A program made the translations under genes and the position numbers. Positions 6,161-11,867 of a stretch of 64,000 nt of DNA are shown here, piece by piece. The DNA is from Candidatus Levyibacteriota bacterium (GTDB taxonomy: Bacteria > Patescibacteriota > Microgenomatia > Levybacterales > GWA1-39-11): the NCBI GenBank assembly GCA_018062815.1, contig JAGORM010000002.1:11211-75210 (forward strand), written 5' to 3'. Each line of letters opens with the position of its first letter. Within the stretch, counting starts at the first letter, position 1. The notes below the pieces were generated by a model. That model searched no databases. It was not told the origin of the DNA and was given only the letters and a program-made list of their open reading frames with translations.

Positions 6161-6245
6161 GCTGGAGTGGCAGAGTAGTCAATTGCTCGTGACTGTAGAT
6201 CACGCGCCCGTTTGGGCTACGGGGGTGCAAATCCCTCCTCCAGCA
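6161..6245 (+). tRNA. tRNA-Tyr (GTA), class II with long variable arm
   Basis: Acceptor GCTGGAG/CTCCAGC, D-stem GCAG/TTGC, anticodon arm CGTGA-CTGTAGA-TCACG, variable hairpin GCCC-GTTT-GGGC, T-arm GGGGG-TGCAAAT-CCCTC (G at position 55 is unusual). No encoded CCA. Confidence 0.65.
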
Positions 6246-6317
6246 CAAAGAAGTAGTAATAAATCCTGTTCAGGCAGCCATAAACTACTTATCTTTTGAA
6301 ATATTTTTCAATGATTA

Positions 6318-6389
6318 GCCTCGATGGCTCAGTGGTAGAGCGAGATCTTGGTAAGATCTAGGTCGGGGGTCCGATTCCCCCTCGAGGCT
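6318..6389 (+). tRNA. tRNA-Thr (GGT)
   Basis: Acceptor GCCTCGA/TCGAGGC, D-arm GCTC-AGTGGTA-GAGC, anticodon arm AGATC-TTGGTAA-GATCT, T-arm GGGGG-TCCGATT-CCCCC, discriminator T. No encoded CCA. Confidence 0.75.
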
Positions 6390-6403
6390 CAAAACAAGTC
6401 TCA

Positions 6404-6432
6404 TTGTATTTTGAGCGTAATTTTTGTATAAT
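6404..6432 (+). promoter_or_regulatory. Candidate sigma-70-type promoter for rpmG (-35 TTGTAT 6404-6409, 17-nt spacer, extended -10 TG-TATAAT 6425-6432)
   Basis: Read directly from sequence; AAGGGAA Shine-Dalgarno-like element ~12 nt before the ATG at 6462. Confidence 0.4.
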
Positions 6433-6461
6433 TATATTTCTCAAGGGAACAAAATAAACAT

Positions 6462-6641
6462 ATGGCAAAGAAAAAAACAGGCGCAGTACTAAAATTAGGA
6501 TTAGTTTGTACAGTGTGTAGAACGCGTGGTTATATAACGTCCAGAAATAAATTAAATACACCTGAAAAGCTGAAATTGAAAAAGTACTGTAGAAAATGCA
6601 TGAAAGTTCAGGAGCATAAGGAAGTAGATAAACTAAAGTAA
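6462..6641 (+). CDS. rpmG: 50S ribosomal protein L33
   Basis: 59-aa ORF not in the supplied track (<60 aa): MAKKKTGAVLKLGLVCTVCRTRGYITSRNKLNTPEKLKLKKYCRKCMKVQEHKEVDKLK. It has the L33 CxxC...CxxC zinc-ribbon pattern and the conserved NTPxKLxLKKYC core. Confidence 0.85.
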   Translation: MAKKKTGAVLKLGLVCTVCRTRGYITSRNKLNTPEKLKLKKYCRKCMKVQEHKEVDKLK

Positions 6642-6751: not shown

Positions 6752-8413
6752 TTAAATGTGTTTACCGTTTCTTTTATTGTTCTTCATTTGTTCGTATGCC
6801 TCTATGATAATTGATATATCAGATCTCCCAAACATATAGAACCCTAATTCTTTAAAATTATTTAAAAGTGTTGTGGTATCTTGTTCTGTCGGTCGTTTTT
6901 CTAATTGTGCATGTATTCTATATGTAAGAGAGGATATAGCTCTGAGATTAGTGGTAGATGGTTCTGGTAGATCAGATATGAATGAAGACATAATGCGTAG
7001 TGTATCTGGTCGACTGAAGAGGGCTTCTCCTGCGTTGTTTACTGCTCGAAAAGCATCAATAAATAGTTTTTTAGTGGTAAAAATATTTTCTATTTTTTCA
7101 GTTTTTATTTTAAGGTTTTTTAATTCTTCTTGAGTGTCGAGAAGAGAGTTTGTATTCTCAACAAGTTGTATCTGAGCTTGGATTTCATTTTCTGATCTAT
7201 AAAGGTCTTTATCGTTTGTTTCAGTTCTTGAGATATTTTCTGTTCGTGGCAAAGAATCAATAAGCCTATATGCCTTTGTAATAGTATTTAATTCTCTTCC
7301 AAGCGCTTCTTTTTCTTCAATAGAAAGTTGTACTATATATGGTTTTTTAGCAAAATTTATCAATACTGAAAGTGAGCGAGTGTCTAGGGGAGTTTTTTGT
7401 TTAAAACCATTATAAAGATTAGTGAGGTTAGTTAGGACTTCACGGGTTTTTTGATAGTTATTTTCTCCAAGCAATCTTAAGTAAGTTCTAAGGGGTGATT
7501 TAATCATGCCATGCTTGTATAGGTTATTAATTCGGTTCAGTTTTACAGGATCTCCAAGTTGACTATATATTTTTTGCCATTCTAGCATGAGATCATTTTG
7601 ATTAATTTCTCCGCGTTTTTTCTCAGATGCCTGAATTATCTTCAGTTTTTCAGCGTTTTTAGGGTTTGCGGATTTAATATGTTGTGCAATTATCCGTGCA
7701 TCCTTTATATTTGTAATAGCTATTGATGCCAGATTTCCATTCGGGTAGAGGAGTTGATAGGGACGTTCTATTCCTGCTTGCATTAATGTATCTTGAATTA
7801 TGGAACCAATTGATCGGTTTTCTACCAGGAATCGGATTTCATGTTTATCCATAATTGCTCTACCATCAAAAATGCCCGATAAAAAATCCCATATAAACTC
7901 AGGAGATTGAGTCCATGAATATTTTTGAGAAAATGTTTCAGCAAATCTTTCCCTTGACAAGTCACCTAAGCGGTTTACGGCAACACTATTTGAAAAAAGT
8001 ATAACATTTTTTTGTTTTACATCTTTTTCTTGAGATTCGCCTTGGGGATTTTTATCAAATATATGTTTGCCTATGGATGTAAATTTCTCTCTCGTTTCAG
8101 GATTTTTTTCACCTTTTATAAATCTACTTCCAGAATCTACATATGATGCACCACCTGTGTATCCAATGAACCATGCAAGCTCTGAAGATGGTGGAAAAGG
8201 GATAGTTTTGAATTTTTCTTCTGATATTGCTCTTATTCTGCCCAACTTTGTTTTTCCTAATAAGACCTCAACATACGTTGGGGAGTAACCAGTTTTAGCG
8301 CTTAGTTCAGCAAGAGATGCTAGAGATGGTATTTTGCCTTCTGCGTGCAGCCGAGCATTTTCTAGCACATGTGATTCAAAAGCATTTCTTTTTTCTTGCA
8401 AATGTTCTTTCAT
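6752..8413 (-). CDS. Hypothetical 553-aa protein: N-terminal HTH-like segment, two degenerate LAGLIDADG-like motifs, long C-terminal coiled-coil
   Basis: HTH-like LASLAELSAKTGYSPTYVEVLLGK; motif-like segments LAWFIGYTGGASYVDSG (~aa 80) and WDFLSGIFDGRAIMDKHE (~aa 178), ~100 aa apart as in double-motif LAGLIDADG folds; C-terminal half strongly heptad/charged. Confidence 0.55.
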   Translation of the reverse strand: MKEHLQEKRNAFESHVLENARLHAEGKIPSLASLAELSAKTGYSPTYVEVLLGKTKLGRIRAISEEKFKTIPFPPSSELAWFIGYTGGASYVDSGSRFIKGEKNPETREKFTSIGKHIFDKNPQGESQEKDVKQKNVILFSNSVAVNRLGDLSRERFAETFSQKYSWTQSPEFIWDFLSGIFDGRAIMDKHEIRFLVENRSIGSIIQDTLMQAGIERPYQLLYPNGNLASIAITNIKDARIIAQHIKSANPKNAEKLKIIQASEKKRGEINQNDLMLEWQKIYSQLGDPVKLNRINNLYKHGMIKSPLRTYLRLLGENNYQKTREVLTNLTNLYNGFKQKTPLDTRSLSVLINFAKKPYIVQLSIEEKEALGRELNTITKAYRLIDSLPRTENISRTETNDKDLYRSENEIQAQIQLVENTNSLLDTQEELKNLKIKTEKIENIFTTKKLFIDAFRAVNNAGEALFSRPDTLRIMSSFISDLPEPSTTNLRAISSLTYRIHAQLEKRPTEQDTTTLLNNFKELGFYMFGRSDISIIIEAYEQMKNNKRNGKHI

Positions 8414-8461
8414 GAAAAATAGTATATGAAAATGTTAACCTGTAGTGCTGGTTTAGAGTGT

Positions 8462-9049
8462 TTATTTTAAATTTTTCTCTATATACTTAAATTCTTGCTG
8501 CATTCGGTATTCATCTCTTGGGTCTGTTAATCTAGCCAGAAGATAAACATCTTTTACTCCTTGCATAAATGCATGTGAGTTGTTTTTCTTACCCCCTGTG
8601 TTTTCATATATGGATTCTGCATCCTGTAGGTATCCTTTGAGAATTGGTTGTTCACAGTCAAATGGGTGTGGATCTATAAATAATTTGTCTACAAGAAACC
8701 TATTCCTTGAAGATCCGGTTATAAAATGTAGAGCAGTATCAGTTGCTGATACATAGAGTACATCATGCATGAAAAGAAACCCTGACAGGTATGAGATCGT
8801 TTCACTCTCTTTCCCTTTTGTTGTAAGAGTGGTGAGAGTTTTAGAAAGTACCTCAAGTGTCTTGTCGCCCATTTGCGCACGCTTCTGAGCATCATTTAAT
8901 TGAGTGTGTAAGTACGTTAAGGGGTTTTGTTCCAAGTTCTGCATGGGTAGTGCAAAATTTACTTCAGACAGTGTAGGTATGCCACTGGGTAGCCGTGGCT
9001 TTGTATATTGTTCATGGCCAATTTCTTGTTTCATGAAGTGAATATACAC
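8462..9049 (-). CDS. Hypothetical protein (195 aa), co-directional partner of the 553-aa protein
   Basis: ORF only; 48-nt gap to the upstream gene; no recognisable motifs. Confidence 0.5.
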   Translation of the reverse strand: MYIHFMKQEIGHEQYTKPRLPSGIPTLSEVNFALPMQNLEQNPLTYLHTQLNDAQKRAQMGDKTLEVLSKTLTTLTTKGKESETISYLSGFLFMHDVLYVSATDTALHFITGSSRNRFLVDKLFIDPHPFDCEQPILKGYLQDAESIYENTGGKKNNSHAFMQGVKDVYLLARLTDPRDEYRMQQEFKYIEKNLK

Positions 9050-9070
9050 CTTATAGTATTTTTTGTCAAA

Positions 9071-9736
9071 TCAAAGAAATATGAGTGCAAGAAGAGCCAT
9101 TGAGAGACCAAGTACGGCTCCCCCAATAACATCAGTTGTCCAGTGTTCACCTAATGACACTCGGGATACAAGCATAAGAATAACTATTCCCCAAAAAAAT
9201 CCATATGTTCCTAGTTTAATGAAAGTAGAAAGTTTCAATTTGTATATTAAGAATGAAAAAACAAATGCCAAAAATACTATTCTTAGAGAATGCCCTGAGG
9301 GATATGACGCATCTGTGAAGACATGTAAGCCGGGAAAATCAGTAAAATGGGATCGCAAAAACATTCTTGGCGGTCCGGGTTGTTCCAGGATATTTTTTCC
9401 AATAAGTTCAATTACGTGTGCGAATATAAACAAACCCAAAGGAATAACTGCCCATATCTTTTTTTTAAAAATGCCGTAAAGCATCAGAACTATAAGCAGT
9501 ATACTTCCTGTAAATTCAAATCTTCCCGCAACTGAGAGAAATGAGAAAAAGTCATCAAGCCGCAGTGGTATTTTTGCTTGGAGTTTAACTGTAGTATCAA
9601 AGTCAAAAGACCTAAGCATATCTGCCCGCACTGCTAGAGTAAATGCGAAAAACAAAAACAAAAAAAATAGTCCAAGGAGCAAGAACACAAGATTTTGTTT
9701 TGTAAAAAATTTTGTTAGAAAAGTTTTTTTTGCCAC
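9071..9736 (-). CDS. PAP2-family phosphatase (undecaprenyl-diphosphate/phosphatidate phosphatase-like), polytopic membrane protein
   Basis: PAP2 motifs PSGHS and SRVSLGEHWTTDVIGG; 5-6 predicted TM helices. Confidence 0.75.
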   Translation of the reverse strand: MAKKTFLTKFFTKQNLVFLLLGLFFLFLFFAFTLAVRADMLRSFDFDTTVKLQAKIPLRLDDFFSFLSVAGRFEFTGSILLIVLMLYGIFKKKIWAVIPLGLFIFAHVIELIGKNILEQPGPPRMFLRSHFTDFPGLHVFTDASYPSGHSLRIVFLAFVFSFLIYKLKLSTFIKLGTYGFFWGIVILMLVSRVSLGEHWTTDVIGGAVLGLSMALLALIFL

Positions 9737-11588: not shown

Positions 11589-11867
11589 TTATCCTGCCTT
11601 TCTAAAGTGCCTGCCGGATTTTCCGCGGTTGGGATGTTTTCGGATGTGTTTAATTATTGCAATATCCTCTTTGTCTAAACTCCTTCCGTTCATGCCCAAT
11701 CTTTTTACGATTTTTGAGATCATAGCTTTTGATACTCCTTCTTCCTTTGCCAATCCTGAAACTGCCCCGTGTATAGTTTGGTATTTGGGAAGCGTTTTAT
11801 CTATTCCTATGATTTCATTCTCTCCCTGTGTGCCCAAAGATTCTACCCCCATATTTTTATTATGCAA
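11589..11867 (-). CDS. Small Fis/NtrC-type helix-turn-helix protein
   Basis: HTH GAVSGLAKEEGVSKAMISKIVKRLGMN resembles the Fis C-terminal HTH; sits between rnhB and the GT39 gene on the same strand. The antisense track ORF 11566-11892 has junk-like composition. Confidence 0.5.
   Translation of the reverse strand: MHNKNMGVESLGTQGENEIIGIDKTLPKYQTIHGAVSGLAKEEGVSKAMISKIVKRLGMNGRSLDKEDIAIIKHIRKHPNRGKSGRHFRKAG

Follow-up and report, generated by a model that had tools for sequence, protein, structure and literature searches.

The question raised by this locus is what a 553-aa hypothetical protein of a Candidatus Levybacteria bacterium, here called X, does with a scaffold that resembles a LAGLIDADG homing endonuclease without its catalytic residues. 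X is present as a single copy within the window (the whole 64-kb stretch of DNA that was analysed), and its neighbours there are housekeeping genes. A first-pass annotation, made from the sequence alone, had described X and a 195-aa ORF on the same minus strand as a two-gene unit next to a tRNA-Tyr/tRNA-Thr/rpmG cluster, and had taken X for a domesticated or inactivated LAGLIDADG scaffold fused to a structural coiled-coil. Both ORFs and the adjoining cluster are present (Table 1), and the shorter ORF (here the orphan gene) likely starts at the later ATG used by NCBI.

Table 1 Features of the X locus (positions are those of the window)
Feature	Position	Strand	Remarks
Gene X, 553 aa	6752..8413	-	ORF list; NCBI MBP6913200.1, 'hypothetical protein KBC00_01165', Candidatus Levybacteria bacterium
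X N-terminal four-helix domain, aa 1-70	8204..8413	-	Likely HTH at aa 30-56 (nt 8246-8326)
X LAGLIDADG domain 1, aa 76-150	7964..8188	-	Motif helix LAWFIGYTGGASY = aa 79-91 (nt 8141-8179); catalytic position Ala89
X LAGLIDADG domain 2, aa 171-248	7670..7903	-	Motif helix LSGIFDGRAIM = aa 178-188 (nt 7850-7882); catalytic position Arg185
X HNH_repeat-like helical unit, aa 270-326	7436..7606	-	PF18780, 'homing endonuclease associated repeat'
X clade-specific C-terminal extension, aa 341-553	6755..7393	-	Predicted all-helical
Orphan gene KBC00_01170 (195-aa ORF)	8462..9049	-	Probably 190 aa from ATG at 9034; between PAP2 and X
Promoter-like site TTGACA-17-TATATT	9041..9069	-	11/12 consensus match; 7 nt upstream of the orphan's ATG 9034
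PAP2-family phosphatase gene	9071..9736	-	Pfam PAP2, E 2.7e-15
tRNA-Tyr, tRNA-Thr, rpmG (L33)	6161..6641	+	Convergent with X; context only

Collection of the X family

Direct searches with X against Pfam, NCBIfam, PHROG, PADLOC, and the PDB returned nothing significant, and the window proteins, searched directly, gave a single hint, to GyrA_w_intein (E 0.003). A word-indexed homolog search with X recovered only four to six relatives, even when a profile was used. One relative (P0004, 35% identical to X) has only residues 1-345 in common with it. An exhaustive profile search with these residues collected the family, as 226 cluster representatives, with E < 1e-10 for 178. The majority have a length of 330-460 aa, so in most cases the N-terminal module occurs by itself.

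A genome scan with a tighter alignment recovered two Levybacteria MAGs only. No copy of X was found in a scan of viral contigs, and a viral structure library searched with the X fold gave generic LAGLIDADG and intein matches only. An apparent serine-recombinase-X fusion (P0009) was treated as a probable assembly chimera, based upon its 1.1-kb contig and its match to P0003 over the common part. In a neighbor-joining tree (calculated with no support values), the window clade formed a separate branch and tandem copies from elsewhere grouped by locus. Literature searches found no description of the family.

Fold and catalytic positions of the LAGLIDADG core

X residues 1-346 were modelled by AlphaFold2, using the family alignment, at a pLDDT of 93.7 and a pTM of 0.83. 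In the model, four helices (2-69) precede the two LAGLIDADG domains and further helices (251-339) follow them. Domain 1 was predicted as helix 77-86, strands 91-93 and 97-102, helix 105-119, strands 124-130 and 133-141, and helix 143-149; domain 2 was predicted as helix 174-185, strands 186-188 and 193-196, helix 200-212, strands 219-222 and 228-233, and helix 236-245. Fold searches with this model matched LAGLIDADG enzymes and WhiA.

X itself has no Pfam match. LAGLIDADG_3 was matched by 40 of the 58 aligned family members (best E 2e-15), at positions that map via the alignment to X residues 78-142 and 174-246, where the first-pass annotation had recognised its two LAGLIDADG-like segments. 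By sequence models, X can therefore be placed in the LAGLIDADG superfamily only by transitive homology. When the family profile was compared with the PDB, PI-PkoII (E 8.6e-5) and the TliVMA intein (E 1.9e-4) were matched across both motifs, with columns 89 and 185 facing the catalytic Asp/Glu of these two proteins and column 185 aligning to their GDG Asp. Structure prediction, fold searches and Pfam LAGLIDADG profiles were among the checks that the first-pass annotation had itself proposed, and together they bear out its central inference.

The catalytic columns were read from 152 representatives aligned to the family profile. The motif 1 column (Ala89 in X) is occupied by G, A, S, R, or K and the motif 2 column (Arg185 in X) by R (79 sequences), K (30), or residues such as S, G, and V, with D or E in 0/152 at both. 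A conserved Lys was sought in both beta1-beta2 loops across the family and none was found. Judged from these alignments, the scaffold of X would be inactivated, with both of its metal-binding acids replaced as had first been noticed. D or E at motif 2 position 6 (D/E183) is kept in 146/152 sequences.

Buried positions of the strands are conserved hydrophobics, and the exposed ones that alternate with them are hypervariable, at 3.3-3.9 bits, with many R/K/S/T/N/Y residues, a pattern that would be expected of a diversified DNA-specificity surface. The four beta-hairpins of X carry a net charge of only 0 to +1, below the family means of +0.6 to +1.5, so the saddle of X may bind DNA weakly.

X was also compared with the intein and archaeal-intron endonucleases of the LAGLIDADG_3 type (PI-PfuI, PI-PkoII, TliVMA intein, I-Tsp061I, and I-DmoI). 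Unlike these, X lacks the catalytic Asp/Glu in both of its motifs and has no conserved active-site Lys. Pfam showed no Hint/splicing domain in it, neither an intron nor an intein is its host, and the gene stands free in conserved synteny. An Rfam scan of the 64-kb window detected no intron and no family besides the tRNAs. The earlier opinion that X is neither a standard homing endonuclease nor a standard intein thus holds.

Other parts of X

The N-terminal HTH-like segment proposed in the first-pass annotation coincides with two AlphaFold2 helices (34-41 and 45-54). Its support in sequence is sub-threshold throughout: searches with an early profile and with a dedicated 35-sequence profile gave AsnC (E 0.05), Ner (E 0.09), and numerous HTH regulators (E 0.3-1). 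Nearly all of the sub-threshold matches were to HTH proteins (AsnC, Ner, GntR-type, LacI, MarA, and ArsR), with aa 25-57 as the aligned stretch. Taken with the model, these matches suggest that aa 30-56 are likely an HTH.

Behind the LAGLIDADG core, PF18780 (HNH_repeat) was matched by 32/58 family members at E ≤ 0.01 (best E 1.8e-12), at positions equivalent to X aa 270-326. Ten members were scanned singly and two exceeded the 26-bit cut-off of PF18780 (P0072 at 27.3 and P0120 at 28.8); X itself scores below the Pfam threshold. The unit had been overlooked in the first-pass annotation. AlphaFold2 placed helices at 272-286, 292-300, 308-316, and 320-339 in this region, and aa 249-340, the part of the conserved core that includes the unit, are more basic than any other region of X (net charge +9, pI 9.9). 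No established function of PF18780 was found in the literature. In the X family the repeat differs from PF18780 in being a single copy joined to an inactive LAGLIDADG core.

The remainder of X had been read as about 250 aa of structural coiled-coil, and this reading was not supported. Residues 249-340 are part of the conserved core, and residues 335-553 were predicted as eight helices, one of them of roughly 45 residues, at a pLDDT of only 45 (44.8). A heptad test, itself crude, found no 28-residue window in X with at least 6/8 LIVM at a/d positions. X has the C-terminal extension (aa 341-553) in common only with P0005 and P0013, and it is absent from P0004. Within it the repeat G..[LM]F..[RQ].D occurs twice, at aa 462 and 524. 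The dN/dS of the extension is 0.24-0.30.

Selection and gene neighbourhood

The X ORF is conserved in relatives and is intact at 553 aa in five genomes. Against four orthologs, dN/dS was 0.18-0.34 for X, with each of four X regions alone below 0.37, and 0.16-0.26 for the orphan gene. This purifying selection indicates that both are real genes.

Homologs of the orphan gene form three clusters only, 73-100% identical and all annotated as 'hypothetical protein' of Levybacteria. As the first-pass annotation had found no motif in it, so Pfam, NCBIfam, PHROG, PADLOC, and the PDB gave no match. The gene lies between PAP2 and X only in two loci (L002 and L003) in which X is at least 85% identical, and it is absent from L001, L008, and L028. 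In contrast, PAP2 is directly upstream of X in L001 (P0004), L008 (P0005), and L028/L029 (P0013, ~25% identical in the core), so the conserved pairing is PAP2-X and the orphan gene is a recent insertion. The supposed two-gene unit, confined to the closest relatives, is therefore not supported. L001 and L028/L029 also have RNase HII farther upstream, and rpmG holds the same position in L001 as in the window; X orthologs at 25-44% identity keep this synteny. A 190-aa gene beyond rpmG in L001 was considered as a relocated orphan gene and rejected (E 0.046). The promoter-like site is the best in the region by consensus match only, and the count of such sites is not above shuffled expectation.

These data make it extremely improbable that X is a functionless gene, left over from a free-standing homing endonuclease and now in decay. 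Lost catalytic residues and the lack of functional annotation anywhere are what such a remnant would display. Selection on an intact ORF and synteny at 25-44% identity contradict it, as does a family of 226 clusters that shares specific non-catalytic motifs.

Y-X loci outside the window

Loci of distant members and one metagenome were scanned, and profile searches were performed over all of their ORFs. In 17/17 independent distant loci with upstream DNA, a gene encoding a protein of ~700 aa, here called Y, is immediately upstream of X on the same strand. After Y come either one X gene, two X genes, or a fusion of two or three X modules. The Y proteins are 31-43% identical between loci, and all named X and Y proteins are annotated as 'hypothetical protein'. 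This strict partnership, along with the lineage and architecture of the X family, appears to be new.

Apart from the sigma/GerE part of one fusion, Y has no Pfam match, and none was obtained from PADLOC. Against the PDB, it showed weak similarity to free serine kinase only (E 0.0014-0.025). Free serine kinase has a ParB/Srx-type fold, and as a lead, such a fold would fit the invariant DGxTR motif that Y carries.

The settings of Y-X are varied. At L014-16, where Y is fused to sigma-70 regions 2-4 and a GerE HTH, the pair is surrounded by T4SS pilin, TrwB-like, and serine-recombinase genes in a conjugative-element-like region. Three further loci are chromosomal: L021 lies inside the dcw cluster (MraW, FtsI-type PBP, Mur ligases, and MurA) of a Levybacteria MAG, L024 adjoins MetRS and TatD with a PBP nearby, and L013 is found among glycosyltransferases and PMT_2. 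Neither the 64-kb window nor any of the orthologous loci searched contained a Y homolog. Given that the window clade is without Y, unlike every other family member, functional inferences from Y-X may not transfer to it. Derivation of the C-terminal extension from Y was also considered and rejected, as hhalign gave only a 27-column motif at 4.7% probability.

The Y-X modules bear on whether X is part of a nuclease or mobile system, acting either through a non-canonical site (e.g., D/E183) or as the targeting subunit for a nuclease such as Y. The near-invariance of D/E at motif 2 position 6, the DGxTR motif of Y with its faint resemblance to free serine kinase, and the occurrence of the modules at varied genomic sites, one of them conjugative-element-like, would agree with this. 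However, the family as a whole lacks the two canonical metal ligands and has no conserved catalytic Lys. In the window clade, Y is also missing from the 64 kb, and X has held a fixed chromosomal position across deep divergence, and neither a PADLOC or PHROG match nor a viral copy was found. We regard a nuclease role as improbable.

About equally improbable is that X is an RNA-binding, maturase-like factor that acts in trans on group I introns of CPR rRNA and tRNA genes. LAGLIDADG proteins have become maturases on repeated occasions, after which the nuclease function can be lost (PMC3384342), and CPR genomes are described as rich in rRNA and tRNA introns (PMC11270868, PMC13011429). The tRNA genes beside X would fit this as well. 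X is not intron-encoded, however, and the Rfam scan of the window surrounding it showed no intron. Its added domains are of DNA-binding types (HTH and HNH_repeat), and the other members are in operons with Y, beside cell-wall or glycosyltransferase genes and not RNA genes.

Comparison with WhiA

To our knowledge, WhiA is the textbook and nearly the sole bacterial case in which domestication of a homing endonuclease gave rise to a host regulator that binds DNA. In this transcription factor, too, the acidic positions have changed, to Arg and Gly (PMC3384342), and the loss of catalytic acids is the likeness that X bears, by its sequence, to WhiA/DUF199. Structures of WhiA are available (3hyi, 3hyj, and 8dy9), of which 8dy9 shows it in an RNAP-sigma promoter complex.

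The differences are several. The Pfam models WhiA_N, LAGLIDADG_WhiA, and HTH_WhiA had no match in X or in the 58 family members. In WhiA the HTH is C-terminal, after the LAGLIDADG core, whereas the HTH-like domain of X is N-terminal (aa 1-70). X adds an HNH_repeat-like unit and, in the window clade, the 210-aa tail. In sequence the X family is closest to LAGLIDADG_3 of the intein/archaeal type, and its gene neighbourhood is PAP2/rpmG or, elsewhere, Y-X. WhiA spans Gram-positive bacteria, whereas the range of the X family is so far Levybacteria. Among the features by which membership in WhiA was judged, X thus shares only one, the loss of catalytic acids. With its LAGLIDADG_3 sequence, opposite domain order, and extra HNH_repeat, this argues for an independent domestication and against X being a WhiA. 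The X family looks like a second such event in bacteria after WhiA.

The comparison also brings up the rival reading that the LAGLIDADG core of X is a protein-protein platform for a sigma factor, RNA polymerase, or Y, with DNA contacted only via the HTH and HNH_repeat. For WhiA, it was suggested on surface charge that the LAGLIDADG domain may have ceded DNA binding to the HTH (PMC3384342), and the RNAP-sigma complex would accord with a platform role. In the X family, the nearly neutral hairpins of X, the Y-sigma factor fusion in one lineage, and the tandem and fused copies, which suggest X-X contacts, point the same way. The exposed strand residues are nevertheless hypervariable and on average basic across the family, which is more like a diversifying DNA-specificity surface than like a protein interface under conservation, and R/K at the former active site would suit phosphate contact. 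We therefore consider a platform role unlikely, while giving it some weight.

Proposed function

X is probably a non-catalytic DNA-binding protein on a domesticated homing-endonuclease scaffold, kept as a host gene and with a putative role in transcriptional regulation or DNA organisation, like WhiA. This agrees with the first-pass annotation, in which a domesticated or inactivated LAGLIDADG scaffold, possibly DNA-binding or segregation-like, was proposed; of these roles DNA binding is the most plausible. A domesticated, inactive LAGLIDADG protein acting as a DNA-binding host protein is of a known kind. Within its family the copy in the window is atypical, being solitary.

From N- to C-terminus, the predicted order of parts is the HTH-like domain, the complete double-LAGLIDADG saddle, a basic HNH_repeat-like unit of three to four helices and, in the window clade, the 210-aa helical tail. 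The beta-sheet saddle would still read a long DNA site, with the polar or basic, hypervariable outward residues of its strands as putative specificity residues. Arg/Lys at the former active site may touch the phosphate backbone instead of holding metal, and the HTH and HNH_repeat units may add further contacts with DNA or a partner. X would thereby bind DNA without cutting it. Given that the window clade is solitary, vertically inherited, and co-located with PAP2, a lipid phosphatase gene, control of envelope genes is a reasonable guess.

A broader and rather doubtful scheme would join X and Y in a CPR-specific module for DNA targeting and transcription. X would read the long site and Y, possibly a ParB/Srx-like NTP-binding protein and fused to sigma-70 in one lineage, would link it to RNA polymerase. 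The X of the window would then be a solitary derivative, in which the 210-aa tail replaces Y and which has been rewired to envelope genes (PAP2 and PMT_2).

If X is indeed a domesticated DNA-binding protein, it would stand beside WhiA as a second, independent case, drawn from a different LAGLIDADG lineage (the intein/archaeal-type LAGLIDADG_3) and built with another architecture. The family offers a rich set of natural variants with diversified exposed saddle residues, and LAGLIDADG scaffolds that recognise long DNA sites but do not cut them have practical appeal as programmable DNA-binding modules. The Y-X pairing and the fusion of Y to sigma-70 provide testable handles on function. The family belongs to the CPR, where hardly any regulators are understood and the majority of genes are still "hypothetical".

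A conserved upstream gene and its sigma-70 fusion

In 17 out of 17 distant loci (L007, L009-L011, L013, L014-L016, L017-L022, L024, L026 and L027), a conserved gene of roughly 700 aa (gene Y) was located directly upstream of members of the dead-LAGLIDADG family, to which the 553-aa inactivated LAGLIDADG gene of the window (gene X) belongs. Y proteins were annotated as "hypothetical protein" throughout, returned no Pfam match and shared an invariant DGxTR motif; their sole PDB similarity, to free serine kinase, was weak. A short motif near the Y C-terminus, G....HPD[IV]VR, resembles the one carried in both copies by the clade-specific tail of X (G..[LM]F..[RQ].D...I...[FY]), with an hhalign probability of just 4.7%.

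In L014-L016, the N-terminal ~400 aa of Y were joined to sigma-70 regions 2, 3 and 4 and a GerE/LuxR HTH (1048 aa in L014), and two tandem dead-LAGLIDADG family genes followed the fusion gene. The surroundings were conjugative-element-like, with a TrbC pilin, a TrwB-like protein, DUF2958 and a serine recombinase.

Coordinates of features (window positions unless a locus is named)
Feature	Location	Strand	Remarks
Gene X	6752-8413	-	
C-terminal tail of X	6755-7393		motif copies at aa 462-485 and 524-547
Promoter-like site of 195-aa partner ORF	9041-9069	-	
92-aa protein gene	11589-11867	-	RpiR-type HTH_6, E 8e-6
Y examples	L013:7835-9964; L021:5777-7921		
Y-sigma-70 fusion gene	L014:1073-4219		counterparts in L015, L016
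Internal tandem duplications	P0006; P0007; P0021; L009:726-2933; L021:7953-10130; L022:2879-4585		

Local neighborhood in the window

In the candidate promoter of the orphan partner of X, just 7 nt separate the end of a -10-like hexamer from the ATG at 9034. Should the promoter be genuine, its transcript would thus have little or no leader. The small HTH_6 gene, placed between the RNase HII and PMT_2 genes, has conserved 87-aa counterparts in two loci orthologous to that of X, L002 and L003, but no gene call was made for it in L001. Its product is a candidate further local regulator.

Duplication and probable recombination

The HTH-LAGLIDADG-HNH_repeat module was tandemly duplicated inside many family members, which contained 2-5 matched stretches per protein and reached 987 aa. 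Where separate copies stood side by side, they tended to be more closely related to each other than to any other member, a pattern suggestive of local duplication, or gene conversion, on repeated occasions. Separately, a 263-aa protein on a 1146-nt JGI contig (P0009) combined an N-terminal serine-recombinase "Recombinase"/zinc-ribbon with a stretch matching residues 66-170 of the X relative P0003; it is probably an assembly chimera, though it could be a genuine rearrangement.

An X ortholog, 85% identical to X and identical to that of L002, was also carried by a MAG labelled "uncultured Gammaproteobacteria bacterium" (L005, CAYMYC010000003.1). The orphan partner gene was located upstream of it, in the same arrangement as in the Levybacteria loci, and the label is probably wrong.

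Gene X was compared with its counterparts in L002, L003, L005 and L006, and divergence within the gene was mosaic. Against L006, dS was 0.02-0.04 in the first 250 codons and 0.64 in the last 213, whereas against L002 the pattern was the opposite (0.67-1.05 versus 0.17). This mosaic points to recombination within gene X between Levybacteria strains.
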